From a virus (lineage: Duplodnaviria > Caudoviricetes), in the IMG/VR virus record IMGVR_UViG_3300023065_000014, positions 1 through 25,199 of that record: a stretch of DNA of 25,199 nucleotides. One strand, 5' to 3'. The notes under the pieces were generated by a model. That model had not been told where the DNA came from. It worked only from the letters and a program-made list of their open reading frames with translations, and made no database searches. Below, piece after piece: positions 1 to 24,147 of the stretch. Position 1 is the first letter of the stretch, and every line of letters starts with the position of its first letter. The position numbers and the translations under genes are program-made.

Positions 1-14
1 TAGGAATGATTTGA
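1..14 (+). CDS. Probable 3' end of an upstream gene, possibly an ArpU-family late transcriptional activator (partial)
   Basis: (t)TA GGA ATG ATT TGA reads L-G-M-I-stop, resembling the ...ALGMI C-terminus I recall for B. cereus-group phage ArpU proteins. Position upstream of the repeat block and packaging genes fits. Only 4 codons are visible. Confidence 0.4.
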
Positions 15-54
15 TTGCAGATTTGTGACACGCAAACTTTTAGGAGCCAATCAA

Positions 55-83
55 ATTGTATGCATTTACAGATACAATATAGT
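55..83 (+). promoter_or_regulatory. Putative sigma-A promoter for the 119..670 gene, overlapped by an inverted repeat
   Basis: TTGTAT (56-61), 16 bp, TATAGT (78-83). Inverted repeat ATTGTAT (55-61) / ATACAAT (72-78). Confidence 0.4.
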
Positions 84-118
84 TAACAAATTAAATTGAG
101 AAATAGGGAGAGATTAAG

Positions 119-670
119 ATGAAAAAAGATGATATCACAATCGAAATGAGTAGGTTAGCAAGAGTAAAGGATGCTTTATTAGTTGTTGATAATGATGATG
201 TTTTAGAGGAACGATTAGAAGTAGCGAAAGAACTTATCGATGAATTGCAAAATGATCCTGACTTCGATATTCGCTTTTTCCGTGCAAGTGTTTTAGAACA
301 CGCATATGGCATTTATGACGACGGAAAAGAATTGAAAATAGATGAATTACAGATAGAACAAAATATTATGTTAGAAAAGATAGAAAAAAGAGATGACATC
401 GAACGTATCATCTTTAATAAATTAGATGACTTTGTAAATGAGAATCTAGCAGATGATGTTAGGAAAGCTGCATTAGAATTGCATTTTGTCTACAAAGACT
501 ATTTTGAAGTAATTGAAAAAAGATATTTTTATACTCCAGGTGAAAAATTGCCAGATGATATTTGGAATATTATCGTGAAATCTGATAAGCGTTTAACAGA
601 GGTTTGGGATATTTTCACGGACGAGTTTGATTGTATATTGGATGATGAAAACGTAATTAGAAAATGGTAA
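119..670 (+). CDS. Hypothetical protein, 183 aa, strongly acidic
   Basis: ORF with RBS AGGGAG upstream. About 49 D/E versus about 27 K/R by hand count. No family recognised. Confidence 0.85.
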   Translation: MKKDDITIEMSRLARVKDALLVVDNDDVLEERLEVAKELIDELQNDPDFDIRFFRASVLEHAYGIYDDGKELKIDELQIEQNIMLEKIEKRDDIERIIFNKLDDFVNENLADDVRKAALELHFVYKDYFEVIEKRYFYTPGEKLPDDIWNIIVKSDKRLTEVWDIFTDEFDCILDDENVIRKW

Positions 671-741
671 AACACCGAGAAAACACCGAGAAAATAGGGG
701 ATAAAAAGGGGGAATTTTGATAATGAAATCAACGGTATTCT
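669..741 (+). promoter_or_regulatory. Putative activator-dependent late promoter: four 11-bp-phased boxes plus -10
   Basis: AAAACACCGAG twice (669-679, 680-690), then AAAATAGGGGA (691-701) and TAAAAAGGGGG (702-712). TATTCT at 736-741 has no consensus -35 at the proper spacing. ArpU/RinA/Ltr activators bind direct repeats at late promoters. Confidence 0.6.
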
Positions 742-746
742 TAATG

Positions 747-1676
747 TACAAGCCCTTTGACAACCGCATATCGAAGAGGATTAGTACACCTATAGTGAAA
801 CGTTCTTCGCGAGAATGTCACGGTAACGTATACCGCATCAAAAAAGGGGCGGGCAAGGCGGTAAGAACCCGTAATGAGACGAAAAGACCAATTAATGAAG
901 ACATATTCCAGTGTGGCGGGTGTGATACTACTCGCATTCGTCATACTGTTTCTATTGTATTTATCAATCAGCTTGGGAGTCGTCCCCTAAGTTGATAATA
1001 AATATAATACTAGATGCCGTGTCTATGATTTCTACATTTGAAAATGGAATGGGTGATGGTTCATATGATTGAATGAATCGCACATTTCAAAAACTGTAGT
1101 ACAAGAACAAAATCTTCGTCGATTTGAACGGCATTACACTTTCTAGTGATTACTGCGAATCTTCACTAGGCAGAGGGCTTCCGCTCTTTGTTTGAGCAAA
1201 CATGAGGCAGTTCCCCCTCTGTCCCCTCCACATGTTTGTTCACGCAAGAAGCGGAAACTTCTTTTACAAATTTATATTTTGTATTCGTTCCGTGCTTGAA
1301 AATGATTACTATCTACTATAGGAGAGTTCCCATAGCTCTCTTTGAGCATATAGTACGCTGTATGTTGAAAGAGGTTATGAATCTCATACTTTGGGACTTG
1401 CTCCCCGGCGCAACTGAGCGCAGATTGATCACACAGGAATGGATTGACTCGAGGAACGATTCATTCCGACTCTACGGAGTATAAACAAGGAGAGCTTTCG
1501 CTCTTTTCTCGGTCACTGACACAAAGCGTGTAGCTTATATGATGATTGCGGTGATCGAGAAAAGAATGAGAGTAATCTTGTTCTTGAAGAGATACTTTTT
1601 TTGCCATTTGTTATCTCTCTTTTCTCCCATCCCCTTGAAAGAAGATAGTGATTAATGTCATTATCTTCTTTATTTT
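747..1676 (+). ncRNA. Long structured non-coding leader or ncRNA cluster (family not recognised)
   Basis: Near-continuous helices with many G-U pairs on the + strand: 752-758/844-850, 795-821, 821-835, 850-871, 909-948, 954-1008, 1032-1099, 1143-1169, 1179-1256, 1331-1379, 1436-1467, C(UACG)G hairpin 1469-1480, 1502-1565. No convincing CDS. Bounded by a -10 and a terminator. Confidence 0.65.
1638..1676 (+). terminator. Intrinsic terminator-like hairpin closing the structured region
   Basis: AAAGAAGATAGTGA-ttaatg-TCATTATCTTCTTT followed by ATTTT. Confidence 0.6.
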
Positions 1677-1684
1677 GTTATAAT
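1676..1684 (+). promoter_or_regulatory. Extended -10 sigma-A promoter for the 1715..2050 gene
   Basis: TG-T-TATAAT is a perfect TGnTATAAT. Inverted repeat TTTGTTATA (1674-1682) / TATAACAAA (1690-1698) overlaps it. Confidence 0.6.
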
Positions 1685-1714
1685 TTGTATATAACAAACG
1701 AAGGGGATGAAAAA

Positions 1715-2050
1715 ATGACAGTACACACAGAAAACTCGGTTGTGGAAGGTTTAACGAAATGGAAACAAGAATTTATCGATTCTAAAGACAATAAAGTAGA
1801 GGAATTAGAATCGCTTAAGAATGAAAGAGAATTAGTTGTAGAAAAGAGACGTTGTCTGCAATCAGCTCAAGGATTAGTTGAAGAGAAAAGCGCGCGAAGA
1901 GAAGCGATTTCAGCTATGGTTGATGGTCTTGATAAACAACGAAGAGAGTTAGATAAGAAAATCGATCAAGTAACTACACAAATTAATATGATTGATTCCA
2001 TTAATGAAGTAGTAATTGGCGAGATTGATAAAAGAATAGAGTCTAAATAA
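1715..2050 (+). CDS. Hypothetical coiled-coil protein, 111 aa, moron-like
   Basis: RBS AAGGGGA before ATG 1715 (preferred over the ORF-track start 1655). E/K-rich heptad pattern. Has its own promoter and terminator. Confidence 0.85.
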   Translation: MTVHTENSVVEGLTKWKQEFIDSKDNKVEELESLKNERELVVEKRRCLQSAQGLVEEKSARREAISAMVDGLDKQRRELDKKIDQVTTQINMIDSINEVVIGEIDKRIESK

Positions 2051-2052
2051 AC

Positions 2053-2083
2053 AAAAGCATCCATAACGGGTGCTTTTTTCTTT
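2053..2083 (+). terminator. Intrinsic terminator
   Basis: AAAAGCATCC-ataac-GGGTGCTTTT then TTCTTT, directly after the stop codon. Confidence 0.8.
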
Positions 2084-2128
2084 GTTATATAGAATTTACA
2101 TAATAAGCATCTTTAAAGGGTGTATTAG

Positions 2129-2235
2129 GTATAGTTAGGATTGAACATCATATAATGATACAGAAAGGTCTTTTCTAACATGCTGGTTACCTCAATGTGT
2201 ATTATTAGCGCCTGGACAAGGGTGCTTTTTTTATT
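2129..2235 (+). ncRNA. Putative small-RNA cassette 1 (sigma-E-like promoter, about 70 nt body, terminator)
   Basis: GTATA (2129-2133)-15 bp-CATATAAT (2149-2156). Terminator AGCGCCT-ggacaa-GGGTGCT-TTTTTT (2207-2232). No ORF. Confidence 0.45.
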
Positions 2236-2358
2236 GCACCTTTTGAGATGGACAAGCATATATTGTAGTGTAGGACAACCTCTCTCAGGTCCTATTCAAT
2301 ACTCATTAAAAACTCCTACACATTTGGGCATCTACTAATGTGGATGCTCTCTTTTTAT
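2236..2358 (+). ncRNA. Putative small-RNA cassette 2 (sigma-K-like promoter, about 90 nt body, terminator)
   Basis: CACC (2237-2240)-16 bp-CATATATT (2257-2264). Hairpin TAGGAC-aacctctctcag-GTCCTA. Terminator GGGCATCTAC-taat-GTGGATGCTC-TCTTTTT (2326-2356). Confidence 0.55.
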
Positions 2359-2451
2359 GCACGATTTGAATAGGACAAGCATATATTACAGTATGTGGTG
2401 ACACCACTTTATATATCAGAGCACCTAACAATTGTGGGTGCTCTTTTATTT
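2359..2451 (+). ncRNA. Putative small-RNA cassette 3 (sigma-K-like promoter, about 55-60 nt body, terminator)
   Basis: CACG (2360-2363)-16 bp-CATATATTA (2380-2388). Shares GGACAAGCATATATT with cassette 2. Terminator AGAGCACCTA-acaattg-TGGGTGCTCT-TTTATTT (2418-2451). Confidence 0.55.
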
Positions 2452-2490
2452 CGTACATATTGGACACCTAAAAAGGGAGGATGAAGAATA

Positions 2491-2655
2491 ATGGAAAGCA
2501 ACTCAAGTATTATCATCAAAAATAAATCAAGTATTAGTATTACCACGACTGTAAGTAAAGGTGATTTAATTTCTACTATTAATCAAGATACAGACCGTAT
2601 ATGGATTAAAGCTAAAAAAAATAATATTGATGGAAAGGTTGATAATAATGGCTAA
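2491..2655 (+). CDS. Small protein, 54 aa, carrying a tail-fibre-like motif
   Basis: Not in the ORF track. RBS GGGAGG (2475-2480). MESNSSIIIKNKSSISITTTVSKGDLISTINQDTDRIWIKAKKNNIDGKVDNNG. Its end overlaps the next start codon. Confidence 0.65.
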   Translation: MESNSSIIIKNKSSISITTTVSKGDLISTINQDTDRIWIKAKKNNIDGKVDNNG

Positions 2656-2902
2656 AAACAAACTTACTATCAAAGTAGATGCTGATACGACAGAAGCATT
2701 AAAACAAATGAAGGAAGTAACGGAAGCCGCTAATGAATGTGTGGCTGCGTTGGAGAAGTTGGAAACGGTTATGAATAGAATTACAGGTAAAAGTAAACCA
2801 ATCAAATATTTTCCTAAGGTTGGTATTGAATTATGCGGTGAAGTGAAACCTTCAGACATCATACAACGAATTAATAATACAGAAGAAAAAATCTGGATTT
2901 AA
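2648..2902 (+). CDS. Hypothetical phage protein, 84 aa
   Basis: RBS GAAAGG before ATG 2648 (MAKNKLTIKVDADT...), in frame with ORF-track 2627..2902. Confidence 0.75.
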   Translation: MAKNKLTIKVDADTTEALKQMKEVTEAANECVAALEKLETVMNRITGKSKPIKYFPKVGIELCGEVKPSDIIQRINNTEEKIWI

Positions 2903-2905
2903 GTT

Positions 2906-2983
2906 GTGATTAAACCAATAGCAATTATCCTAGGCACTGCCGTGATCGGTACAGCGTCTTATTTTATTTTGCGAAGGGAGTGA
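2906..2983 (+). CDS. Micro-ORF, 25 aa, single hydrophobic helix
   Basis: GTG start. MIKPIAIILGTAVIGTASYFILRRE. Fills the gap between neighbours, but the RBS is weak. Confidence 0.4.
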   Translation: MIKPIAIILGTAVIGTASYFILRRE

Positions 2984-2987
2984 TGGG

Positions 2988-3086
2988 ATGTTTTGGTTAG
3001 GAGGACTTACAGGATATCTTGTAGGTACACTTGTTACATTATTGGTGATCTACTTCGGATATCGGATTGGTGAGATGAGTCAGTGA
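2988..3086 (+). CDS. Micro-ORF, 32 aa, single transmembrane peptide
   Basis: RBS AAGGGAG. MFWLGGLTGYLVGTLVTLLVIYFGYRIGEMSQ. Confidence 0.6.
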   Translation: MFWLGGLTGYLVGTLVTLLVIYFGYRIGEMSQ

Positions 3087-3138
3087 AGAAGGAAATGGAG
3101 TAGTTGAAAGCGTTAAAGAATGATAAGGGGTGAGGGGA

Positions 3139-3264
3139 ATGTGGGGTCCAGTAACTGGAAGAGACGTACTAGAGTTCTTTTGGGAGTATAAGTGGTATGT
3201 ACTGAAGATGTCATGTATTCCCTTCTTAATCGGATTAGGAACAGGGTGGATTATATGGGGATGA
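3139..3264 (+). CDS. Micro-ORF, 41 aa, C-terminal transmembrane segment
   Basis: RBS AAGGGGTGAGG. MWGPVTGRDVLEFFWEYKWYVLKMSCIPFLIGLGTGWIIWG. ATGA overlap with the next gene. Confidence 0.6.
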   Translation: MWGPVTGRDVLEFFWEYKWYVLKMSCIPFLIGLGTGWIIWG

Positions 3265-3404
3265 CTAGAGAAGAAATGATTCGATTCGTCATTGAAGGCG
3301 GAAAAGAGTTTGGAGAAGATTACACTCTTAAAGGATTAGAGAATATGTCCGATGAAGAATTGAAGAAAGAAGTTGAATGGGTGGATTATCTGTTAGATAA
3401 GTAA
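3261..3404 (+). CDS. Hypothetical acidic protein, 47 aa
   Basis: ATGA coupling to the previous ORF supports start 3261 (MTREEMIRFVIEGG...) rather than 3192. Confidence 0.65.
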   Translation: MTREEMIRFVIEGGKEFGEDYTLKGLENMSDEELKKEVEWVDYLLDK

Positions 3405-3481
3405 TCCTAACAAAACAAACAACTCAACGAACAAAAATAGAGATAGTTAACAAAATGCAGGGTGGTTTCACAATCCCTTTA

Positions 3482-3598
3482 AAATCAATACTTTGAATGT
3501 ATACTTTTGTTAGTGGTTTTTGCTAAAACAGCTAAAACGCTATGAGTTCAATGAAATCAATGTTTTGAATGTAAACTAATGGGTAAAAGTTTACATTC
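3482..3598. repeat. Direct and inverted repeat cluster (protein-binding or recombination-site-like)
   Basis: AAATCAATACTTTGAATGTA (3482-3501) versus AAATCAATGTTTTGAATGTA (3554-3573), 18/20 identical. Perfect 11-bp IR GAATGTAAACT (3567-3577) / AGTTTACATTC (3588-3598). Tandem GCTAAAAC twice at 3522-3538. Confidence 0.7.
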
Positions 3599-3626
3599 GC
3601 ACGAACAATTTAAACGATGAATTATT

Positions 3627-3655
3627 AAGTAGCGAATCCGCTGCTTTTTTATTTT
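3627..3655 (+). terminator. Intrinsic terminator
   Basis: AAGTAGCG-aatc-CGCTGCTT then TTTTATTTT. Confidence 0.75.
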
Positions 3656-3688
3656 ATAAAGGAATTACCATAAGGAGGAGTTAGAGAA

Positions 3689-3901
3689 ATGAAACTAAGT
3701 AAACAAGAACAAACAGTTATTATCGGTCAGTTAATAAATGTTATTGGTGTGGGGTTAGCAAAACAACGCATTGATCCACAGAAACTAGAAAAGGCTGTAG
3801 CTATGCATAACGAAATAAGTGATGATATGACACCGAAGCAAACAAGGGAAACGCTTATTAGTGTGTTAGATAAGACGATTGACGAATTCCTAAAAGCTTA
3901 A
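3689..3901 (+). CDS. Hypothetical phage protein, 70 aa
   Basis: Strong RBS AAGGAGG; intact ORF. Confidence 0.85.
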   Translation: MKLSKQEQTVIIGQLINVIGVGLAKQRIDPQKLEKAVAMHNEISDDMTPKQTRETLISVLDKTIDEFLKA

Positions 3902-3939
3902 ACAAAAAAACTAATAGAGTTTATCGTGAGGTGGTAGAT

Positions 3940-4143
3940 GTGGCAGCAATTCCAACAAAAGTAATTACTTGTTCATACTGTGAAGGGACAGGGAAAGAAA
4001 TAAATCATTTCGACCCACCAGTTATTGAACATAGAAGATCAATGACTGTGTTAGAACCACAACGGACAATTAGCGGCCGAGAGATATTAGATGATCCTTG
4101 TCCTGCTTGTAATGGAACATTAATGATTAGAGTAATTAAATAA
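3940..4143 (+). CDS. Small zinc-finger protein (DnaJ-type CxxCxGxG motifs), 67 aa
   Basis: CSYCEGTG and CPACNGT. RBS GAGGTGG favours GTG at 3940. Confidence 0.75.
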   Translation: MAAIPTKVITCSYCEGTGKEINHFDPPVIEHRRSMTVLEPQRTISGREILDDPCPACNGTLMIRVIK

Positions 4144-4173
4144 CTATTAAGGGATTACCGCGAGGTGGTGAAT

Positions 4174-4998
4174 ATGGCTAGGCAACGTAGCCCAGATCGT
4201 GACAAAGCATTTGAAATATATAAAGCAAGTAAAGGCGAGAAGCCGCTTGTTGAGATTGCCGAAGACCTCGGTATCTCAGAAGGTACAGTTCGAGGGTGGA
4301 AAAACAAGGATAAGTGGAACGATAAAATTTATGGAACGTTCCGTAAAAATGAAAAGAACGCTCCGGATAATACGGAACGTTCCGTAAAAACAGGTGCACC
4401 CATAGGCAATAAGAATGCAGTTGGTAATAAAGGTGGAGCTCCGAAAGGAAACTCGAACGCTGTTGGATTTGGTGCTCCCAAACAAAACGCTAATGCTGTA
4501 ACGCATGGATTGTTCAGAAAGATAATTCCTAACGACGATCAACACGCAATGGAATTACTTGATGAAATACAAAATCATACAGAATTAGATATGTTGTTTA
4601 ATTCCATTCAGCTGCAATACTTCAATATCCTCAATTCACAGCGCATTATGCATGTTCGTGATAAAGATGATATGTCACGAGAGGTTATTAGTGAATCGGA
4701 AGCTGGTGAATCTTACACTGTTCAATTCGCATGGGATAAGCAAGCTAATTTACTAACTGCATACGCAAGGGCCATGACTACATTATCTTCTATGATAGAA
4801 CGCTTTGATAAGTTAGCTAATGTAGATGATGAGCGAAGATTGAAGTTAGTTCAAATGAAGACTAATATCGAGAAAACACAAGCGGATACTGACTTCGCAC
4901 AAGAACGCGCAGCAAAACTCAAAGGTCAAAAGAAAGATACTTCATTACTCGATGCATTAATAGAAGGGCGTAAACAATATGAGCAAAACAGCGATTAA
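4174..4998 (+). CDS. terS: Terminase small subunit
   Basis: N-terminal HTH (LVEIAEDLGISEGTVRGWKNKDKW), GAPxGNxNA repeats followed by THG, RBS GAGGTGG, overlap with terL. Confidence 0.93.
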   Translation: MARQRSPDRDKAFEIYKASKGEKPLVEIAEDLGISEGTVRGWKNKDKWNDKIYGTFRKNEKNAPDNTERSVKTGAPIGNKNAVGNKGGAPKGNSNAVGFGAPKQNANAVTHGLFRKIIPNDDQHAMELLDEIQNHTELDMLFNSIQLQYFNILNSQRIMHVRDKDDMSREVISESEAGESYTVQFAWDKQANLLTAYARAMTTLSSMIERFDKLANVDDERRLKLVQMKTNIEKTQADTDFAQERAAKLKGQKKDTSLLDALIEGRKQYEQNSD

Positions 4999-6256
4999 GT
5001 TTTCCCCTAAACAATTAGAAGTTATCTATCGGCCATATAATTACACCTTTGATGTACTTGAAGGGACGCCTAGATCAGGGAAGACAACAGCAGGGCACTT
5101 TCGCTATGCTGATTATTTGACATGGACAAGGGATACGAATCATTTGATTGTTGCTTATAACCAGGAGCAAGCACACCGTTTATTCATCGATGGTGATGGC
5201 ACTGGATTACAAAACATATTTGGAAACTTAGCGGATATTAAACATGACGAGCGTGGTTCTCACCTTGAAATACACACTCCGAATGGCATTAAGCGTGTCT
5301 ATTATAAAGGAGCAGGAAAAAGTAATAGTGTAGGTGCTATAACGGGTATGTCGCTTGGTAGTGTAGTATTTTGTGAGATTAACCTTCTTAATATGGGAAT
5401 GATTCAAGAGTGCTTCAGACGTACATTCGCAGCGCAAGACCGTTACCATTTAGCGGATTTAAATCCTCCCGCCCCTAACCATCCAGTTATATCAGAAGTA
5501 TTTGATGTACAAAATACACGTTGGACTCATTGGACTCCTGATGATAATCCGATTCTTACTGAGAAGAGGAAGCAGGAGATACATGAAATCCTTTCAAAGA
5601 ATCCTTACTTACTGGATCGAGATTGGTATGGTAAACGTGTTATGCCACAAGGTGTTATTTACTCCATGTTTAGCATGAAAGATAACATCATTCCTGCTGT
5701 TCGTGGTCAGAGATACGAAATGTACTTCACTGCTGATGGTGGTCAATCAGATGCTACTTCATGCAGTTGTAATATCGTTGTTAGGTATGAAGATAAATTC
5801 AGATTGCTGCGTGTGGCTAACTACTATCATAGTGGGAAAGATACAGGGCAAGTCAAAGCAATGTCCACTTACGCAAAAGAGATTAAGAAGTTCGTTGAAT
5901 GGTGTGTTAAGAAGTTTGAAATGCAATACACTGAAGTGTTTGTCGATCCAGCGTGTAAATCTTTAAGAGAAGAATTACACCTAATTGGTATTCAAACAAG
6001 CGGGGCAGACAACAACGCTCGTGATATAAAAGGTTCAAGCAAGGGAAAAGAAGTTGGTATCGAGAGACTTCAAAACGCCATTACTAACGAGCAATTTTTA
6101 CTTGTTGAGTGTGATGAGTATGACCATTATAACTTCCTAAAAGAAATTGGGATGTATGTCCGTTTAGATAACGGAGAACCGATAGACGCTTACAATCACG
6201 CCTTAGATGAGGCAAAATATAGTAATAATTACTTCTATAACAACTATGTAAAATAA
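4979..6256 (+). CDS. terL: Terminase large subunit (PBSX/SPP1-like, probably headful)
   Basis: Walker A GTPRSGKT, Walker B-like VVFCE, coupling motif DLNP, nuclease motifs ADGG, VDP and NHALD. 425 aa. Confidence 0.95.
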   Translation: MSKTAIKFSPKQLEVIYRPYNYTFDVLEGTPRSGKTTAGHFRYADYLTWTRDTNHLIVAYNQEQAHRLFIDGDGTGLQNIFGNLADIKHDERGSHLEIHTPNGIKRVYYKGAGKSNSVGAITGMSLGSVVFCEINLLNMGMIQECFRRTFAAQDRYHLADLNPPAPNHPVISEVFDVQNTRWTHWTPDDNPILTEKRKQEIHEILSKNPYLLDRDWYGKRVMPQGVIYSMFSMKDNIIPAVRGQRYEMYFTADGGQSDATSCSCNIVVRYEDKFRLLRVANYYHSGKDTGQVKAMSTYAKEIKKFVEWCVKKFEMQYTEVFVDPACKSLREELHLIGIQTSGADNNARDIKGSSKGKEVGIERLQNAITNEQFLLVECDEYDHYNFLKEIGMYVRLDNGEPIDAYNHALDEAKYSNNYFYNNYVK

Positions 6257-6268
6257 GGTGGTGATAAT

Positions 6269-7768
6269 ATGTTTAAAACTATCGCCAATGCGGTAAGGAG
6301 GTTGTTCACGAAAATGGGACTTATCAAAGGTATGAAAAAAGTTACCGATAACAGAAAGATAACTATCGATGAGGAATCGTACAAGCAAATAGATATATGG
6401 AAAGCTATCTATAGTGGTCATTTCGCTGAGTGGCATGATTTGAAATACCAAACGATTGAAGGACAGAAAACACGCCGTATGGCTTCATTGAATATGGCGA
6501 AAGTCGTATCTCAAGAAATGGCTTCTCTTATCTTCAATGAGAAATGTTCTATTAATATCTCAGATGAAACGCTATTCAATAACATCAAGAACGTTTTAGA
6601 TGATAATAACTTTACAAGAGAGTTTCAGAGGTATCTAGAATACATGTTAGCTCTTGGCGGTATGGTTATTAAAGTGTATTGGGATAATGGAATTAAACTT
6701 TCTTATGTCACCGCAGACTGTTTTGTCCCTGTATCGTGGGATAACAATAAAGTTACTGAAGGTGTATTTATTAATGAATCCACTAAAGGCGACAAGTATT
6801 ATACGCTGCTCGAATGGCATTTAATCGAAGGTACGCAGCATGTCATTAAAAATGAGCTGTATGAGAGTAAAAATAAGGGTGAATTAGGAACTAAAGTCTC
6901 TTTATCTATTCTGTACGCTGATTTGGAAGAAGAAGTTCGTATTGATGACTTATCTAAGCCGATGTTTGTGTATTTCAAACCGAATACAGCAAACAATTTC
7001 GACTTATATTCACCTTTGGGGATCTCAATATATGCGAACTCATTAGATGTATTAAAATCTCTTGATATCGCATTCGATAGCTTCCAAAGGGAATTCGTTT
7101 TAGGTAAGAAACGCATTATTGTACCTGCTTCTGCTATCAAATATGTAACGGATCCGATTTCTGGACAACAACAACGCTACTTTGATGCATCGGACGAAGT
7201 ATATGAAGCGATGAAGTTCGAAGAAAACCAGGAAATAAAAGATATATCTGTTGAATTACGCGTTGAAGAACATAAAGCGGCAATAAATGCGCTGTTAAAT
7301 TACTATTCAATGCAGACGGGCTTCTCTACCGGTGCATTTAGCTTTGATGGTCAAGGAGTTAAAACAGCAACAGAAGTTGTAAGCGAAAACTCCAAGACAT
7401 TTAAAACAAAACAGTCGCATGAAACGATTATTGAGGATGGTATTCGCGACTTAGTGGATATTGTTATCGAAGTTGCTTCTTTATATGACGAATTTGAAAG
7501 CGCTGATGAATATGAAGTCACAGTAACCTTTGATGACTCTATAGCAGAAGATCAGGCTGCTGAAATCAATAAGCAAATCTTACTTGTTACCAACAATTTG
7601 ACAACTAAGAAAAAAGCGATTATGAAAATTCACGGCGTTTCTGAAGAAGAAGCGACTCAAATGTTAGAAGAAATAACGGAAGAGAATAGAATGGCCCTTC
7701 CTGAAAATGTTGATTTCTTCGGATTGGAAGGGAATCAACAGAAAAATAATGATCCAGGAGCTGAGTAA
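6269..7768 (+). CDS. Portal protein (A118/SPP1 gp6-like)
   Basis: 499 aa directly after terL. SPLGISIY, KTATEV and VTFDDSI motifs are typical of A118-type portals. Confidence 0.95.
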   Translation: MFKTIANAVRRLFTKMGLIKGMKKVTDNRKITIDEESYKQIDIWKAIYSGHFAEWHDLKYQTIEGQKTRRMASLNMAKVVSQEMASLIFNEKCSINISDETLFNNIKNVLDDNNFTREFQRYLEYMLALGGMVIKVYWDNGIKLSYVTADCFVPVSWDNNKVTEGVFINESTKGDKYYTLLEWHLIEGTQHVIKNELYESKNKGELGTKVSLSILYADLEEEVRIDDLSKPMFVYFKPNTANNFDLYSPLGISIYANSLDVLKSLDIAFDSFQREFVLGKKRIIVPASAIKYVTDPISGQQQRYFDASDEVYEAMKFEENQEIKDISVELRVEEHKAAINALLNYYSMQTGFSTGAFSFDGQGVKTATEVVSENSKTFKTKQSHETIIEDGIRDLVDIVIEVASLYDEFESADEYEVTVTFDDSIAEDQAAEINKQILLVTNNLTTKKKAIMKIHGVSEEEATQMLEEITEENRMALPENVDFFGLEGNQQKNNDPGAE

Positions 7769-7770
7769 TC

Positions 7771-8892
7771 ATGGCATTACCTCCTGAGAAATTACTGCAG
7801 CTCTCTATATTCGTAGTTGATATTTACAACGCGATTGAAGAAGAGTTGCTTTTAAACATGGCAAAAATACTTAAAAATGATATTGAATTGCTGCTAACTG
7901 CTGAAAACGCAGAGCAATATCAACACTGGAGAATGGTTCAGTTAAATAAATTAGGTGTTTTGAATCAACAACAAATCAATACCATCGCTCGACATAGTGG
8001 TAAAACGGCTGAAGAAGTGCATACGATGCTACAAACAGCCGGATATACTGCAGTCGAACAACACGAAGGCATTTATAAGAAAGCCGTGCAACTCGGTTTA
8101 TTAGCCGCTACTTCTGTAGCACAAACAAGTACCGCTTTAATTGGCATTCTGAATGCATACGAGCGGCAAGCATTAGAGACTTTTAATCTCGTTAATACAA
8201 CGATGCTTAAACAGGCTCAACAAGTCTATTTGGATATTTTAAATACAACGGTAGGCAAGGTGTTAGGTGGTGTTATAACACCACAACAAGCACTTAGACA
8301 AACTGTTTCCAAATGGGCTCAGAAAGGTATTCCTGCTTTTATTGATAAGGCCGGTAGAAAATGGAGTACAGAAGCTTATATAAACAACGTTACACGTTCT
8401 ACTAGTAATAATGTAGCGAATGAGATGCAGATGAAACGTGGCGATGAATACGGTGTGGACTTAATAGAAGTTAGCAGCCATTTAGGAGCGAGACCGCTCT
8501 GTCGAAAATGGCAAGGCGCTATATATTCTAAAAGTGGTAAACATAAAAAATATCGCCCGCTGTCTGATACATCTTATGGTGAAGCAGCAGGACTTGGAGG
8601 GTGTAATTGTCGGCACCAATTCTACCCATTCATTGAAGGTGTATCGACACAACGATACGAGCCATACGACGATACTGAGAACGACAGAGTATACAAAGAA
8701 AGCCAACAGCAAAGACACCTGGAACGGCAGATAAGAAAAGCGAAGAAAGAAGTCAAGGTTATGGAAGCGTTAGGTGATCCAGAAGGCGTGAAAGAAGCGA
8801 AGAATAAGGTTTCGCAACGACAAGCTGCTATGAGAGAATTCATCAACCAAACGAAACGTAAACGTCAATATAACAGAGAACAAATTGTATAG
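7771..8892 (+). CDS. Minor capsid / head morphogenesis protein (Phage_min_cap2-like)
   Basis: DKAGRKWSTEAY, VSSHLGARPLC, GLGGCNCRH and QQQRHLERQIR motifs. Follows the portal. Confidence 0.92.
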   Translation: MALPPEKLLQLSIFVVDIYNAIEEELLLNMAKILKNDIELLLTAENAEQYQHWRMVQLNKLGVLNQQQINTIARHSGKTAEEVHTMLQTAGYTAVEQHEGIYKKAVQLGLLAATSVAQTSTALIGILNAYERQALETFNLVNTTMLKQAQQVYLDILNTTVGKVLGGVITPQQALRQTVSKWAQKGIPAFIDKAGRKWSTEAYINNVTRSTSNNVANEMQMKRGDEYGVDLIEVSSHLGARPLCRKWQGAIYSKSGKHKKYRPLSDTSYGEAAGLGGCNCRHQFYPFIEGVSTQRYEPYDDTENDRVYKESQQQRHLERQIRKAKKEVKVMEALGDPEGVKEAKNKVSQRQAAMREFINQTKRKRQYNREQIV

Positions 8893-8903
8893 GAGGAACT
8901 AAT

Positions 8904-9146
8904 ATGAATTTCGGACAAGCTTTAGAAGCCTTAAAACAAGGGAAAAAGGTGACACGCTCTATTTGGGGTGGTCATTGGTTTCTATCCAAGAATCCAGAGG
9001 TAAAAGAAGAACTGGACGCTGGATATGTAAGAGGATTTCAAACTCACGATATGATATTCGCTGTATTAAAAGATAATGGTGGGGTTGCTCCTGCTCAAGC
9101 GTACCAAGCTGATATGTTAGCAGAAGATTGGGAGGTTGTTGAATAA
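8904..9146 (+). CDS. tad2: DUF2829 / Tad2-like nucleotide-sponge anti-defence protein
   Basis: Family signature MNFGQALEALKQGKKVTR..W at the N-terminus and QADMLAEDWEVV at the C-terminus. RBS AGGAGG. Confidence 0.8.
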   Translation: MNFGQALEALKQGKKVTRSIWGGHWFLSKNPEVKEELDAGYVRGFQTHDMIFAVLKDNGGVAPAQAYQADMLAEDWEVVE

Positions 9147-9421
9147 TGAAAAACACGATTACTCAAGAAGATATTAATAGCATTTTAGAAAAGATTCATT
9201 GGACAGTAGAAGAGTTTCACGGCAAATGTACAGTAGTAGTCGCTAAATTGCCAAACGGATTTATTCTAACTGAATCAAGTGCATGTGTAGATCCTGCTAA
9301 TTATGATGTAAACATCGGCATCGAATGCTGCAAAGAGCGCATCGTTAATAAAGTTTGGGAGTTAGAAGGATATCGTTTGCAATGTGAAGTTGCGGAAAAA
9401 TCCTTTAAAAAGGAGGAATAA
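9146..9421 (+). CDS. acb4: Phage Gp49/66-family protein (Acb4-like anti-CBASS sponge)
   Basis: TVVVAKLPNGFILTESSACVDPANYDVNIG...NKVWELEGY matches the Phage_gp49_66 pattern. The link between this family and Acb4 is from memory. TAATG coupling to the previous gene. Confidence 0.7.
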   Translation: MKNTITQEDINSILEKIHWTVEEFHGKCTVVVAKLPNGFILTESSACVDPANYDVNIGIECCKERIVNKVWELEGYRLQCEVAEKSFKKEE

Positions 9422-9423
9422 CG

Positions 9424-9633
9424 ATGGTTTATGTATTATTTTCTTTAAAAACTGACCCGCACATCAAGTTATCTATCGAAGATAAAAGTGAGCAAGATGT
9501 AATGAAATCACTTGAACCACAATTTAAATCAGGTTCTACTTACATCTACCTAGATAAAGCTATTATAGAAAAAGAACAAATCGCAGCTGTTCAAGTATCT
9601 GAGAAAGGAGTTTTTATAAATGTTCACAACTAA
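9424..9633 (+). CDS. Hypothetical protein, 69 aa (third gene of the insert)
   Basis: RBS AAGGAGG; starts 2 nt after the previous stop; 3' end overlaps the scaffold start. Confidence 0.8.
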   Translation: MVYVLFSLKTDPHIKLSIEDKSEQDVMKSLEPQFKSGSTYIYLDKAIIEKEQIAAVQVSEKGVFINVHN

Positions 9634-10261
9634 ATATCGATTACCTTTAAATTTACAATTCTTCTCTGAGGGAGGAGAACCTACACAAACTCCACCTGAA
9701 GGAGGTGATCCTAATGTAACACCAGAAACTACACCACCAGCTCAAGAACCACCTGTACAGCCGCCTGTTACCTTTACACAAGAGCAGATGGATGAAGTGA
9801 AACAGCAGCAGGAAGCATCATTCTTGAAGAAACTTGGTGTGGAGAACTTAGATCAGTTGAAACAAACGGTAAAAGGTTGGAATGAATACCAAGAGTCACA
9901 GAAAACAGAGCAAGAAAAAATAAATGAAAAGTTAACAACCTTTGAGACTCAATTAAAAGAAAAAGATGAGTCTCTTTTTAATTCTCAGGCGCAAATAGCC
10001 GCGCTTAAATTAGATATCAAAGAAGAAAAGAACTTAAATGCAGTTATTACTCTAGCGAAAACTAAGGTTAATGATGATGTAGACATTACAAAGGCTATCG
10101 AAATGGTAGTTGAAGAGTTTCCACATTTTAAAGGTGTAGTGGAGCAGCCACCTGCAGATCCAGGAAAGCCGAAACCGACATTTTCAAACGGCCAACACCA
10201 ACAAACGTCAATGACAGAGTCTGACAAATGGTTTGCGGCGTTCGGAGTTAAAAAGCAATAA
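9620..10261 (+). CDS. Capsid scaffolding protein
   Basis: N-terminal LNLQFF motif, Pro-rich linker, coiled coil, position immediately before the MCP. Confidence 0.9.
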   Translation: MFTTKYRLPLNLQFFSEGGEPTQTPPEGGDPNVTPETTPPAQEPPVQPPVTFTQEQMDEVKQQQEASFLKKLGVENLDQLKQTVKGWNEYQESQKTEQEKINEKLTTFETQLKEKDESLFNSQAQIAALKLDIKEEKNLNAVITLAKTKVNDDVDITKAIEMVVEEFPHFKGVVEQPPADPGKPKPTFSNGQHQQTSMTESDKWFAAFGVKKQ

Positions 10262-10270
10262 GTTTTGATG

Positions 10271-10301
10271 AAGTCATTCTTTGTTGATGGCTTTTTGTTT
10301 T
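10271..10301 (+). terminator. Terminator-like hairpin between scaffold and MCP
   Basis: AAGTCATT-ctttgtt-GATGGCTT then TTTGTTTT. Confidence 0.45.
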
Positions 10302-10336
10302 GAAAAAATTATAAAAAATAGGGAGTTGTTTTATAC

Positions 10337-11230
10337 ATGGCTACACTAAATTATGCTTCACAATATCAAGAAGTACTTGTTCAAAAGTTTTCGCAAGCAT
10401 TAGCATTCGGAGCATTATATGCTACACCTAATAACAGCGTTGTAAAATGGACAGGACCAAAAACAATCATGATTCCACGTATTAAAGTCGGCGGTTACAC
10501 TGATGTAAATCGTGACGTTGTCGGAAACTATACGCGCCGCGTTGACAATTCATTCGAACCAAAAACTTTAGGCCATGACCGCGAATTCCGTACTTTAGTT
10601 GATCCAGTAGACGTTGACGAAACAAACATGGCTCTTTCTATCGCTAATATTACGCGCGTGTTTAATGAAGAAGAAGCAACGCCAGAGCACGATAAATACA
10701 TGGCTTCTAAATTATATGCTGAATTCACAGGAGCAGGGAAAACTGCTGATGTAACTGTACTTGATCCTGCAAGTTTCCTTACTGTATTTGATAACTTCAT
10801 GGAACAAATGGACGAAGCAGAAGTGCCGCAAACAGGACGCATTCTTTATATTACGCCTACTGTTAAAAAGACTGTAAAAGCAGCTAAAGAATTACAACGT
10901 CAACTTGATATCTCTGGTACTAATGAAAAAGCGTTAAACCGCGGCGTATATTCGCTTGATGATGTAACAATCGTAACAGTACCATCAAGCCGCATGAAAA
11001 CAGCATACAACTTTACGAATGGAGCAGTACCGGATGCAGCAGCAAAACAGATCAACATGATCTTAATTCATCCATTATCAATGGTAGCTCCACAAAAATA
11101 TGAATTTGTTGATCTAGACACTCCAAGCGCATCAACAGGTGGCAAATACCTTTACTATGAGCGCAAATACTGGGATGTATTCATTTTAGGCGCTAAAGTT
11201 GATGGTGTTAAATTCAACATTACAGCATAA
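10337..11230 (+). CDS. Major capsid protein
   Basis: 297 aa after the scaffold. GPKTIMIPRI, LGHDR...VDPVDVDET and YYERKYWDVF motifs are typical of Firmicute siphophage capsids. Followed by a terminator. Confidence 0.92.
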   Translation: MATLNYASQYQEVLVQKFSQALAFGALYATPNNSVVKWTGPKTIMIPRIKVGGYTDVNRDVVGNYTRRVDNSFEPKTLGHDREFRTLVDPVDVDETNMALSIANITRVFNEEEATPEHDKYMASKLYAEFTGAGKTADVTVLDPASFLTVFDNFMEQMDEAEVPQTGRILYITPTVKKTVKAAKELQRQLDISGTNEKALNRGVYSLDDVTIVTVPSSRMKTAYNFTNGAVPDAAAKQINMILIHPLSMVAPQKYEFVDLDTPSASTGGKYLYYERKYWDVFILGAKVDGVKFNITA

Positions 11231-11260
11231 GAGAGGCTTTTATAGCTTCTCTTTTTTATT
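11229..11260 (+). terminator. Intrinsic terminator after the MCP
   Basis: AAGAGAGGCT-tttat-AGCTTCTCTT then TTTTATT. Confidence 0.8.
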
Positions 11261-11280
11261 ATGAAAGGAATGGTGGTTAC

Positions 11281-11520
11281 ATGAGTAACACAGTAAAAGT
11301 GCAACGATTGAATAAAGTATTACACATTGAAAAAGACTTCTTAGAAAGTTATCTGAATGATGGTTTTGATCAGATCGGCGAAGAAGGAAAGATCATCAAA
11401 CGTGCTACTGGCGGCCGCAATGTTACTGTATCAGAGCATAACGCAGCACTTGATCGCATCGAAGAACTAGAAGCGGAATTAAAAGAGTTAAAAGCGCCTA
11501 AAAAATCTGCAGCCAAGTAG
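11281..11520 (+). CDS. Small head-module protein with C-terminal coiled coil
   Basis: 79-aa ORF with RBS, between the MCP and the connector gene. Confidence 0.8.
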   Translation: MSNTVKVQRLNKVLHIEKDFLESYLNDGFDQIGEEGKIIKRATGGRNVTVSEHNAALDRIEELEAELKELKAPKKSAAK

Positions 11521-11528
11521 GTGATCAC

Positions 11529-11930
11529 ATGCCTTATATAGATGTTGATTACTATAATAACGATTACGAAGGGACTCAAGTCTCTGATGAAACGTTATTA
11601 AAAAGAATGATAAAAAGAGCCAGTGAGCAGATAGATAGCATCATAGGTTACAAATTACAAGGAGTTGACTTCGATAAAGTTGCTCCTTTTATTCGTGAGC
11701 AAGTCAAAAAAGCTACTGCAGCACAAGTTGAATTTCTAGCTATTAACGGCATTACTTCTGCAACTGTAAGTGAAGGCGGCGGCGGTTTCTCTGTTGGAGC
11801 TTATTCTGAGAATGGAATGAGTGCAGGAGCGGCAAGTGCACCTAGTCATTATGACCGTTATGCGATTACTGTAGTTGATTATCTGAAGCATACAGGACTT
11901 CTTTATGCAGGGATTGGTGTACATGGCTAA
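11529..11930 (+). CDS. Head-tail connector (adaptor) protein
   Basis: MPYIDVDYY...RASEQID...VKKATAAQVE...YLKHTGLLYAG pattern plus synteny. Confidence 0.8.
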   Translation: MPYIDVDYYNNDYEGTQVSDETLLKRMIKRASEQIDSIIGYKLQGVDFDKVAPFIREQVKKATAAQVEFLAINGITSATVSEGGGGFSVGAYSENGMSAGAASAPSHYDRYAITVVDYLKHTGLLYAGIGVHG

Positions 11931-12258
11931 ACCGATACGGTTATCATTGCTGATTCACACTGTAGATTATCTGGAATATACCGGAGAAGATGATACATGG
12001 GGTGGAAATGGTAACTATGCTCCTGCTGTAAGAATCGAAAGAGTAAGAGTGGAGCCTAAGAAGACTGTCGTATCTAACGGAAACGGTGAGAGCCTTGTTA
12101 TGCAAATACTCTTATTTCATGATGCAGTTCATTCAACACCTGTTACTTTCGAGGAGAAGTCCAAAGTCATATTTAACGGAAAAGAAATGACCGTTAGCAA
12201 AGTCAGTGAATTTTATGATAGAAGCAATCTTCATCATGTGGAGGTACTGCTAGTATGA
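11923..12258 (+). CDS. Head completion protein (A118 Minor_capsid_1-like)
   Basis: Start 11923 overlaps the previous stop. LLIHTV...HHVEVLLV pattern plus synteny. Confidence 0.75.
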   Translation: MAKPIRLSLLIHTVDYLEYTGEDDTWGGNGNYAPAVRIERVRVEPKKTVVSNGNGESLVMQILLFHDAVHSTPVTFEEKSKVIFNGKEMTVSKVSEFYDRSNLHHVEVLLV

Positions 12259-12605
12259 TTCGTTTGAATATCCGAATTGATACACCTGATATCGAGGGGA
12301 AAGTAATGGAAGCTACTCAGAAAGCGCAATTTGCACTAGATCAGCAGGTGCTTAAAGACAGTAATTTCTACATTCCGAAAGATACAGGTGAATTAGAAAG
12401 ATCTGGCGTTAGATTCAGCAGGCCAGGAGAGGGACATATTGAATGGTCAACACCTTATGCGCGACGCTTGTATTGGAATCCGCAATATTCTTTCTCTCAT
12501 GACGCGAACCCTAATGCGATGGGGCTCTGGTTCGAAGAGGCAAAAGCTAGGAATGTAACGGATTGGGTAAGAATTGTAGAAAACGATATTAAGCGAAACT
12601 TATAG
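12255..12605 (+). CDS. Neck / tail completion protein (Minor_capsid_2-like)
   Basis: YIPKDTGELERS, TPYARRLY and WFEEAK motifs. ATGA overlap. Confidence 0.8.
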   Translation: MIRLNIRIDTPDIEGKVMEATQKAQFALDQQVLKDSNFYIPKDTGELERSGVRFSRPGEGHIEWSTPYARRLYWNPQYSFSHDANPNAMGLWFEEAKARNVTDWVRIVENDIKRNL

Positions 12606-12615
12606 GAGGACAAAC

Positions 12616-13038
12616 ATGATATGGCTAATTGAATCGGTCAAGAAACATTTAACCACTACTTTGCAGCCGGGTATCCTATTTGCTCCTATAAAAGCCGATT
12701 TATTGGATATAGGAGCAAATGATACACCGCGAAAAAGTATTGCTATTAGAATGATTCCGTCAGCAGCAGGAGAACAATATTTCGAAGGTGAAAACATCAA
12801 CAAGCAAATTCAAATTCTCGCAAAAAGTAGTAACCAACTGGAAGTAAACAACACAGTTGAATTTATTACAAGGGAACTAAATAACGTTCATAGGCGTGTA
12901 TTTAACGCTATTGATGGCTCCTATACACTAAGACGACTCAATGTGTATGTGGAGCCTAATTTCGTTGAGAAGACAGCAGCAAATGAGTTTATATACACCG
13001 CACTTTTTTCTGCGGAATTAGAAATAGGAGGTAATTAA
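12616..13038 (+). CDS. Tail terminator-like protein (Minor_capsid_3-like)
   Basis: 140 aa, RBS AGGAGG, immediately upstream of the tail tube gene. Confidence 0.7.
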   Translation: MIWLIESVKKHLTTTLQPGILFAPIKADLLDIGANDTPRKSIAIRMIPSAAGEQYFEGENINKQIQILAKSSNQLEVNNTVEFITRELNNVHRRVFNAIDGSYTLRRLNVYVEPNFVEKTAANEFIYTALFSAELEIGGN

Positions 13039-13041
13039 TAT

Positions 13042-13479
13042 ATGGCATATCTGTTGAACCATCTTTATAAATTTGAAATCAATGTAGGAACGGAGTCTAC
13101 TCCTAAGTGGGCTGTTATTGCTAAGGGTATCAAGTCAGTAGATCCCGATAATAACGAGGAAGTAGAAGAGGACTACTACTATGATGGTGGAGGCGCTTCT
13201 GAGCGTTCTGTTATTGGTTTCATGATGAGTTATTCCTTTGAAGGTCATCGTTCTTATGGCGATGAGGCTCAAGACTTTATCCTTAAGAAAGTTAACCAAA
13301 TTGGAGACGCTCGTAAGACTGACTTTAGAGTGACTGAGCCAAACGGTGACAAATGGGAAGGTCCTTCAACTATCTCAGAGATCAAAGTTCCCGGAGGAGA
13401 TGCGAATAGCAAGGGTGAGATTGAGTTTAATATTTCCTTTGACGGAGCTCCAAAATTTACAGAAAAAGGCGCAGCTTAA
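13042..13479 (+). CDS. Major tail (tube) protein
   Basis: YYYDGGG, FEGHRSYGDEAQDFI and GGDANSKGEIEFNISFDGAP motifs of A118-like tail tubes. Confidence 0.88.
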   Translation: MAYLLNHLYKFEINVGTESTPKWAVIAKGIKSVDPDNNEEVEEDYYYDGGGASERSVIGFMMSYSFEGHRSYGDEAQDFILKKVNQIGDARKTDFRVTEPNGDKWEGPSTISEIKVPGGDANSKGEIEFNISFDGAPKFTEKGAA

Positions 13480-13505
13480 TAGTTCTGCATTTCTCTTCCG
13501 TTCAT

Positions 13506-13566
13506 GCTATCGAATTACACTGAGAGGGAGCTTGTATTGATTCCCTTCTCGGTGGATAGCTTTTTT
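13506..13566 (+). terminator. Extended hairpin / terminator after the tail tube gene
   Basis: GCTATC...CACTGAGAGGGA / TCCCTTCTCGGTG-GATAGC followed by a T7 run. Confidence 0.55.
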
Positions 13567-13663
13567 AAAGTGACAAAAATAGTACAAAATATACTTTTAA
13601 CTTATTCGAATAAATTAAAAACCTCGACGGAGGCAAATATAAAACCAAAGGGAGATAACCATA

Positions 13664-14080
13664 ATGACTAACGTAGTAGAAAACAAGTTTCAATTTAACT
13701 TCGAGAAAACTTATAGAGAGATTGATGTAGCAGGGAAACTTTACAAGGTGAGCTTTGATGATGAGTCAATGTTCAAGTATCAAGAATGTTTCGTTGCTTA
13801 CGAGAAGAAAGCCAAGGAGTTACAGGCTGAAGAAGTTGATATCCGTGAAGCTACTCCAGAACAACTACGTGATATGAATGCAAAGCAACGTGAGGTTGTA
13901 AAAGATGCTATCGAGATATTCTTAGGTGAAGATACTTTTGAGGAACTGTATAGGAAAGCAGGACGCTCTATTATGAATCTATTTAGTTTAGTAAATTATT
14001 TAACTAAACTAGTAGAAGCAGAGCTACGTGCTAAAGCTGGAAGTAACTTAGACGCATACTTGACTAACACTAAGAAGTAA
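13664..14080 (+). CDS. Tail assembly chaperone
   Basis: 138 aa, charged and helical. IEIFLGEDTFEELY pattern. Lies between tail tube and TMP. Confidence 0.75.
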   Translation: MTNVVENKFQFNFEKTYREIDVAGKLYKVSFDDESMFKYQECFVAYEKKAKELQAEEVDIREATPEQLRDMNAKQREVVKDAIEIFLGEDTFEELYRKAGRSIMNLFSLVNYLTKLVEAELRAKAGSNLDAYLTNTKK

Positions 14081-14091
14081 GGTGATCGCTT

Positions 14092-14814
14092 ATGGGACCG
14101 AGATTCTCACTCACAGAGCGTAACGTAGATGTAATAACTTGGGGAGGCGTGGCTATTGAGCTAAACCTTTCCTATGATAATATCCTCGTTATGCTGCAGC
14201 TATTCGATGATAAAACGGTGTCTGATAAAAGCAAACCTCTAATAGCCCTCAATATGCTTGTAGTAGAACGTTCCTTACTAGCTCAGCTAAACGGGGAACA
14301 ACTTAATAAACTTCTCATTGATATCTTTAAAGCAAAGCTCAATATAGACCTTGATAAAAAAGAACGAGTCAATGAGATTACAAATAAGGATAACTCCACA
14401 GACGAAGCAGAAGAGGACGAGACATTCCAAGAGGTTCCTATAGTTGACTTTACTATAGACGCTGAACGGATTTTCTCGTCCTTTTTGTTTGACTACAATA
14501 TTAATCTAATCGAGCAGCAAGGAAAGCTACTCTGGAACGAGTTCCTAGCTCTATTCAATAACTTATCAGAAGAGACAACTATGAAGACTGCTATTAAGTA
14601 CCGCACTTGTGAAGTCCCTAAGAAGACCAAAGACAATGCGGACCAGGTGAAGGATATTAAGAAGAAAAAAGCCTTTTATGAGCTTCCACAAGCGAAGGCC
14701 ATGAGAGAGGCTAGAGAGTTGAAAGCTTATGAGGACCGCATGAGACGTTACAAGGAAGCACGTAAGCAACTAGCTCAAGAAAACAAGGGTGTTAAACCTA
14801 CAACAGATGATTAA
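14092..14814 (+). CDS. Bacteriophage Gp15-family protein (second tail chaperone)
   Basis: LNLSYDNIL, DFTIDAERIFSSFLFDYNINL and LLWNEFLALFNNL motifs of the A118 Gp15 family. Confidence 0.85.
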   Translation: MGPRFSLTERNVDVITWGGVAIELNLSYDNILVMLQLFDDKTVSDKSKPLIALNMLVVERSLLAQLNGEQLNKLLIDIFKAKLNIDLDKKERVNEITNKDNSTDEAEEDETFQEVPIVDFTIDAERIFSSFLFDYNINLIEQQGKLLWNEFLALFNNLSEETTMKTAIKYRTCEVPKKTKDNADQVKDIKKKKAFYELPQAKAMREARELKAYEDRMRRYKEARKQLAQENKGVKPTTDD

Positions 14815-14873
14815 GACCTCATAGCAGGGCTCCTGGAGACTCTTTAAATTAGACGAAAGGAGCGTGAATATAC

Positions 14874-18671: not shown

Positions 18672-18737
18672 AATAAACTTACGAGCCTTCCTTCTAGGGG
18701 GCTCTATTAAATAAGAATAACTAAGGAGGATACTCAC

Positions 18738-23767: not shown

Positions 23768-23783
23768 GTGAGATTTTCCCTAC

Positions 23784-23883
23784 AGAGCAGCCATAAGCTG
23801 GTCTTTTTTATTTTTCCTAAAATACTGGCTTAGATTAAGTTTTACAGATTGAGAGAGGCGAAATTCGTCTCTCTTTTTATTTT
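23784..23883 (+). terminator. Two tandem terminator-like hairpins before the lysis cassette
   Basis: AGAGCAGC-cataa-GCTGGTCT-TTTTT (23784-23809) and GAGAGAGGCGA-aat-TCGTCTCTCT-TTTTATTTT (23851-23883). Confidence 0.7.
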
Positions 23884-23899
23884 GAAAGGAGGTGAAGAC

Positions 23900-24139: not shown

Positions 24140-24147
24140 GAGAGATA

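Follow-up and report, generated by a model that had tools for sequence, protein, structure and literature searches.

Introduction

Structured RNAs that act in cis near the start of long, terminator-rich operons are represented by HK022 put, the Bacillus subtilis EAR element and conAn2 of pLS20 (PMC8191782, available passages), and boxA goes unmentioned in those passages of the conAn paper. In the rrn leaders of B. subtilis a small hairpin precedes boxA, which binds NusB by NMR (PMC13753749). According to the available part of the same 2026 paper, the antitermination complex of Bacillus has not been investigated experimentally, its rrn form has not been reconstituted, and its role where Rho is dispensable is left open. 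For phage late transcription, the available text of PMC3753634 reports the Ltr/ArpU activator to be the only phage factor needed, and such activators require direct repeats of the kind described below.

The locus considered here lies in a window of 25,199 nucleotides, the whole stretch of DNA that was analysed, from a tailed virus (Duplodnaviria; Caudoviricetes; IMG/VR record IMGVR_UViG_3300023065_000014, positions 1 to 25,199). As with put, EAR and conAn2, its structured cis RNA appears to stand close to the head of an operon that is long and rich in terminator-like hairpins. A preliminary description had seen a compact pseudoknotted domain at 747-872, opening the late transcript, and suggested an antitermination RNA. 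Judging from homologous sequences, we find a conserved RNA core to be real at this place, whereas the specific pairs first proposed for it are mostly contradicted.

Homologues and their classes

Homologues were gathered by three routes blind to boxA: an 18-base pattern from 900-917, which gave 119 viral and 31 genome loci (7 Bacillus); 60 ArpU neighbourhoods; and two patterns for a central motif, whose 240 matches were chiefly chance. A scan with a boxA-plus-stem pattern covered 9 of 64 parts, and its loci were passed to the later parsers. The motif-anchored parser returned 129 distinct cores, from which three chance matches (L355, L375, L405) and a promoter-deleted copy (L216) were dropped. 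The resulting 125 fall into classes A (89, including the window), B (7), C (6), F (7) and G (16), and 121 of them parse through the T-loop hairpin P6. These are counts of distinct sequences and not of independent events, each class being probably a single lineage. Since class D (four loci: L026, L060, L099 and L217) was left unparsed, together with a few degenerate copies, and since rows of classes B, F and G were required to have a boxA score above 2, the core set leans slightly to boxA carriers.

A sequence-only model (R1, 23 rows) matched 40 of 104 scored host-family genomes. Among 151 genomes of the order it gave no convincing match outside that family, the chromosomal match at L588 being judged chance. 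Rfam offered no match in the window at E ≤ 5, in keeping with the preliminary description, which named no Rfam family, and at E ≤ 1 nine divergent loci gave none apart from a weak RsaE match. Full-text literature searches, with most subscription papers and all supplements outside their reach, returned no paper describing the element.

Phage setting and late promoter

The window covers the late region of a tailed temperate phage, in which terL and an SPP1-type portal gene follow terS (4165-4998, plus strand; PF10668, phrog_509), which encodes the terminase small subunit and is the first gene of the packaging operon. The stretch 660-1000 has matches in 9 phage records, all Bacillus, and 700-1700 in 143 Bacillus plasmid records; in phages 0105phi7-2 and PfNC7401 the match falls where nothing is annotated, after a gene annotated as an ArpU-family late activator. 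An ArpU-like gene stands on the same strand, 61-1879 nt upstream of the element, in all 92 homologue loci with at least 2 kb of upstream sequence. The model search added 20 further genome loci, several of them weak or decayed, and ArpU was present within the fetched stretch at 10 of these. At six loci (L596, L598, L600, L606, L610 and L586) the promoter, boxA and a partial core are found with ArpU absent from the fetched 1.5 kb; these are probably prophage remnants, possibly reused ahead of other genes.

The predicted ArpU/Ltr late activator site of the window (669-694, plus strand) holds two direct repeats of ACACCGAG at 672-679 and 683-690, the only exact copies in the window, and no second ArpU-type repeat pair was found in the window before terS. 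As arpU itself lies outside the window, we infer ArpU control of this phage's promoter from the homologue loci. The predicted -10 hexamer (TATTCT, 736-741, plus strand) would give a start near A748. Its TAnnnT pattern is kept in 122 parsed homologues, which carry at least five different promoter alleles; in most class A and C cores the hexamer lies 10 nt before boxA, and sequence conservation begins at 747. The differing alleles are predicted to converge on one RNA start near 748, and the element to open the ArpU-type late transcript of temperate phages of the B. cereus group. The placement originally described, at the head of the late transcript, is consistent with these results.

Two open reading frames near the promoter were set aside. 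ORF 119-670, rejected as ArpU with no Pfam or PHROG match, would encode an acidic protein of 183 aa and lies ahead of the late promoter, on the side where arpU, absent from the window, is expected; Atlas leads for it were weak. ORF 717-995 runs across the element and was rejected as a gene: its start precedes the predicted transcript, it has no Pfam or PHROG match, and in 123 of 125 cores its frame runs for 0-47 codons before a stop.

A ribosomal-type boxA near the predicted start

The sequence GCCCTTTGACAAC at 752-764 (plus strand) is a boxA of ribosomal type and a predicted NusB/S10 site. Sites for comparison came from the rrn leaders and spacers of three related genomes (19 sites, 11 distinct). 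With a matrix from the 11 distinct sites, 752-764 ranks first of 50,374 window positions; its score is reached in 3 of 30 shuffled windows, so the window site alone is not genome-wide significant, while the background of 5.5e-5 per position amounts to about 0.002 within 30 nt of the predicted start. The site agrees with the E. coli consensus at 9 of 12 positions and with that of B. subtilis at 9 of 13 (both as printed in the available part of PMC13753749).

Conservation among the homologues is high. The boxA score is at least 11.5 in 109 of the 125 cores, positions 755-760 and 762 are each kept in 122-125, and a host rrn boxA is matched exactly over 13 nt in 8 cores and over its first 12 nt in 24. 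In 121 parsed cores boxA lies 10-33 nt after the conserved -10, and its sequence persists while flanks and pairing partner change between classes. The 240 matches of the boxA-blind scan included 28 family members with a boxA (score at least 11.7) 15-30 nt upstream, and a single unrelated match reached a score of 11. As in the host rrn leader, a small hairpin stands ahead of boxA in some cores (32 of 125), and NusB is encoded in all three host genomes checked. Positions 754 and 761 set the window copy apart from the nearest host site, C754 being found in 77 of 125 cores and in none of the 11 host sites. Of 125 loci scored with the matrix, seven have no site above 4. Poor copies occur at L038/L137, L097, L107, L428 and L462, and the four class D loci have no boxA near the start.

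NusB binds single strands, and the phage boxA is predicted to be paired. A helix able to cover it (755-759/772-776, plus strand) is unbroken in 77 of the 89 cores of class A, in 5 of the 6 of class C and, at the aligned positions, in none of the 30 of classes B, F and G, which have a different partner or none. In equilibrium local folds the pairing of the boxA core ranges from 0.68 to 0.96 by class, with class-specific partners, and three of four host boxA sites fold weakly. A leader-trailer type helix suggested by folding (752-759/1171-1178) was rejected: it has a C-A mismatch at 754/1176 in 58 of 82 relatives, and 1171-1178 pairs locally with 1183-1190.

Pairing in the conserved core

Two hairpins after boxA show covariation. 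Hairpin P5 (833-852, plus strand; 833-836/849-852) has a variable loop; its pairs 833-835/850-852 are intact in all 121 cores and the fourth pair in 103, with compensatory changes from C-G to U-A in classes B, C and F and from G-C to C-G in F. Hairpin P6 (858-872, plus strand) closes the T-loop-like sequence UAAGA plus 2 nt. Its pairs 858-861/869-872 are intact in 120 of 121 cores, the stem appearing as GCGG/CCGC, GGAA/UUCC or GAGG/CCUC; in a 30-row alignment 96.7% of its cells are paired, with double changes in three of the four pairs, a result equalled by none of 500 shuffles, and controls slid along the alignment are 31-58% paired. In 119 of 121 cores the loop carries UA[ACG][GA]A, with two or three further bases, a pattern that we take to be a T-loop. 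After P6 comes a conserved purine-rich motif, GACGAAAAGACC (878-889, plus strand), found in classes A and G, altered in B and absent from C and F. At L040, L090, L003 and L221 (classes B and C) an extra AAGGG/CCCTT hairpin follows P6, with a loop resembling a second T-loop-like motif.

Upstream of P5 an H-type pseudoknot is predicted. Stem 1 (777-779/789-791, plus strand) is intact in 125 of 125 cores, its pair 777/791 being A-U in classes A and C and G-C or G-U in B, F and G. The predicted stem 2 (within 782-832) joins 782-787 with 828-832, with G784 bulged or paired with U831. In classes A and C its five pairs are intact in 72 of 95 cores and one is mismatched in the other 23. In all 30 cores of classes B, F and G the loop forms 5-6 bp of UAGCGU/ACGUUA type with the strand just before P5, and 5 of these cores show a one-sided change from G-U to A-U; most B, F and G cores were found by a pattern fixing the stem 2 letters, and nine (L204-L206, L211, L213, L220, L221, L224 and L225) came from ArpU neighbourhoods instead. 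The strands of stem 2 differ in A and C from those in B, F and G, yet still pair. Insertions are restricted to the three loops of the pseudoknot: a hairpin in loop 2 (B, G), loop 3 (A) or loop 1 (L595). On balance we favour this pseudoknot for the family, and hold it with somewhat less confidence for the window's own copy, because equating the stem across the classes calls for a bulge of one base.

The complementarities first reported at 747-872 are all present, although C821 is claimed by two of the hairpins simultaneously. Complementarities of 5 bp are mildly enriched (13 against a mean of 5.4; matched in 16 of 1000 shuffles). The idea of a compact domain survives as a conserved core with its pseudoknot predicted elsewhere, but 740-880 alone is not unusually stable (z = -0.50; 65 of 200 shuffles fold equally well). 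Among homologues the proposed closing helix 752-758/844-850, in which boxA bases were placed without boxA being recognised, is intact in just 20 of 121 cores. The proposed pseudoknot 763-767/858-862 is intact in 81 of 121 and mismatched wherever the classes diverge; the suggested covariation check on it found no compensatory change and not one double change. Hairpin 795-821 folds in class A, where it is real and occupies pseudoknot loop 3 (plus strand), but none of the 36 cores outside that class has it, and hairpin 821-825/831-835 is present in 82 of 125 cores, all class A. Hairpin 850-853/868-871 holds in 109 of 121 cores but in none of the 7 of class B, and the pairing 831-836/858-863 holds in 101 of 121 but is broken in all 7 of class F; together these two form a possible alternative, minor fold. 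Because 833-835/850-852 and 858-861/869-872 are better kept, GCGG, formerly drawn as a loop, is placed in a stem strand of P6.

The long leader and its class variants

In classes A, B, C and F the core is followed by a long, ORF-free, structured leader (748-1675, plus strand), which is not seen in G. Its conserved blocks are 747-1080, 1145-1260 and 1465-1670, and in many relatives its 3′ end is a terminator-like hairpin. That end (1584-1671) weakly resembles RsaE/RoxS through a CUCCCAUCCCC motif (E 1.2), as does L221:2547-2652 on the minus strand (E 0.044), both below the family cut-off.

None of the 9 testable class G cores has the downstream leader motifs, so that this class retains boxA and core but not the long RNA; class F has boxA and core without the first terminator hairpin. 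By this comparison the core is more widely kept than the long RNA. At the minimal locus L225, ArpU and the promoter are followed by the core, a terminator, one gene, a second terminator, terS and terL, all within about 0.9 kb of the promoter; as the core stands here without the long RNA before two terminators and terS, it is not merely a part of that RNA. Class D has the same promoter type and keeps the long leader, with an unrelated 5′ domain lacking boxA near the start. It retains the T-loop hairpin P6 with compensatory changes and can serve as a natural control.

Terminator-like hairpins ahead of terS

The first terminator-like hairpin (909-956, plus strand) has a short U tail; class G has a hairpin with a U-rich tail at the same place, and in class F it is deleted. 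Six more lie on the plus strand between promoter and terS, at 1641-1668, 2057-2073, 2208-2225, 2326-2349, 2419-2443 and 3629-3644. In 747-4164 there are thus seven on the plus strand against one on the minus strand, with 0-1 in 20 shuffles, which fits the need for read-through that the antiterminator proposal implied. Of three sequenced relatives, IEBH and PfNC7401 each have four before terS and 0105phi7-2 has three up to the record end. After ArpU, family loci average 2.85 per 3 kb and other ArpU loci 1.91, a difference that is not significant (13 against 46 loci, p = 0.064). Since ArpU loci without the element also carry terminators, and since weak internal promoters occur (sigma-A-like matches at 3447-3505), we regard the terminator evidence as permissive and not as proof.

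Further terminator-like hairpins lie within the late operon, at 11231-11251, after the major capsid gene, and at 23853-23873, before the lysis genes. A GGACAAGCATATA-like motif recurs between small terminator hairpins in an ORF-poor stretch (2213-2225, 2249-2262, 2372-2385 and 2461-2468); it may resemble sporulation sigma-factor promoters and might drive small RNAs.

The stretch is contained, as contigs, in 24 soil metatranscriptome runs. The contigs of four runs compared with 1-6000 and of two compared with 6001-25199 cover nearly all bins, so that DNA carry-over cannot be excluded, and start, strand and read-through are unreadable from them. The step in depth at 751 falls where a second related phage joins, and we do not count these runs as evidence.

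Discussion

Weighing these comparisons, we put the chances at about even that the core is a NusB/S10-type (Nus-factor) cis antitermination site of the late operon and not a copy of put or EAR. The boxA at 752-764 would load host NusB and S10 onto RNA polymerase, the predicted pseudoknot and the two covarying hairpins would help to keep the modified polymerase running, and the polymerase could then pass the terminator-like hairpins between promoter and terS and reach the packaging genes. Counting against a Nus reading are the predicted pairing of boxA, the existence of class D without it, and a terminator excess that is not significant; boxA-only complexes are, moreover, best known against Rho and not against intrinsic terminators. 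Internal promoters could also drive terS. No N-like protein is shared within 2.5 kb, ArpU being the only gene common to all 88 loci. A fuller version can be offered tentatively, as a conjecture that we would not yet expect to hold: late control in B. cereus-group temperate phages may have two steps, in which ArpU initiates and a module of boxA, H-type pseudoknot and T-loop turns the Nus complex that the host uses on rRNA into a processive antiterminator at intrinsic terminators, without a phage protein. Self-terminated accessory genes and a 0.9-kb RNA would then fit inside the late operon.

A different account would make the core the 5′ domain of a stand-alone RNA, of about 200 nt in class G and about 900 nt here, with boxA recruiting Nus factors solely for protection or chaperoning, as for rRNA, the pseudoknot shielding the 5′ end and terS being transcribed from other promoters. 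The leader 748-1680 is indeed strongly structured (z = -7.48; 0 of 20 shuffles), many relatives finish it with a terminator-like hairpin, its 3′ end has the weak RsaE/RoxS likeness, and boxA serves rRNA quality besides processivity (PMC10250234, available part). Yet class G has boxA and core without the long RNA (9 of 9), class F has them without the first terminator hairpin, and a second ArpU-type repeat pair before terS is absent, so that we hold this account to be rather unlikely. An attenuator switch appears less likely still. Here P5 and P6 would compete with 850-853/868-871 and 831-836/858-863, leaving boxA free or paired and setting termination at 909-956. Of 121 cores, 109 keep the first of the alternative helices and 101 the second, class F retains the first through double changes, and the two hairpins are close in energy (-4.3 against -3.8 kcal/mol); but 850-853/868-871 is broken in 7 of 7 class B cores and the pairing of 858-863 in 7 of 7 of class F, P5 is retained in all 121 cores and P6 in 120, the terminator stem shares no bases with either fold, and class F is without that terminator.

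The core might instead bind RNA polymerase directly, as a protein-free antiterminator like HK022 put or EAR, with its boxA likeness incidental. A compact conserved core opening a terminator-rich operon would suit this, as would class D, which holds P6 without boxA, and the absence of a shared phage partner gene. An exact host boxA at a fixed place in several classes is, however, hard to call incidental, EAR went unmatched in the Rfam search, and we consider the explanation quite improbable; the presence of a host-type boxA is what leads us to prefer Nus-factor antitermination, as in rrn or lambda nut. It is hardly to be expected at all that the pseudoknot senses a ligand, in the manner of preQ1-I or otherwise, or that the element signals a NusG pause. 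The H-type topology and the A-rich loop 3 recall the former, but Rfam gave no such match at E ≤ 5, and the first base of loop 1 is A in 122 of 125 cores whereas preQ1-I has a conserved U in loop 1. For the latter, a TTNTTT run, which we take to be the NusG pause motif, lies within boxA in 26 of 125 cores but is absent from the window and from most of class A.

On present comparisons the element belongs neither to EAR, put or nut/N nor to any family of Rfam, and its fold is new to Rfam 15. It differs from put, EAR and conAn2 in giving no sequence or Rfam match, in having a boxA within the core and in having no ConAn1-like gene adjoining. GOLLD and ROOL are likewise long, ornate prophage RNAs with a T-loop-like motif; they have no Rfam match to the phage RNA, and the phage core occurs also without the long RNA. 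Lambda nut sites (boxA plus boxB, with N) similarly place boxA on a phage transcript ahead of terminators, and the lambda pR'/tR' late leader, with Q, is a short leader ending in a terminator, as in class G. Unlike lambda nut, the element belongs to a phage of a Gram-positive host and to an ArpU-activated late promoter, and it has neither a lambda-type boxB nor a shared N-like gene within 2.5 kb. Were antitermination true, it would add a second layer of control to the Ltr/ArpU model of late transcription.

The rrn leader (boxB-boxA-boxC; NusB/S10/NusA/NusG) likewise has boxA just after the start and then a long untranslated RNA, and its small 5′ hairpin has a counterpart with similar boxA spacing in the 32 phage cores noted above. 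The phage element differs in lying in a late operon, in having a predicted pseudoknot and a T-loop hairpin after boxA, in a boxA predicted to be locally paired, in that a leader-trailer helix was not found, and in that the downstream stops are of intrinsic terminator type. With its built-in terminators and its deletion variants (classes C, F, G and D), the phage leader offers a natural test case for the Nus complex outside rRNA.
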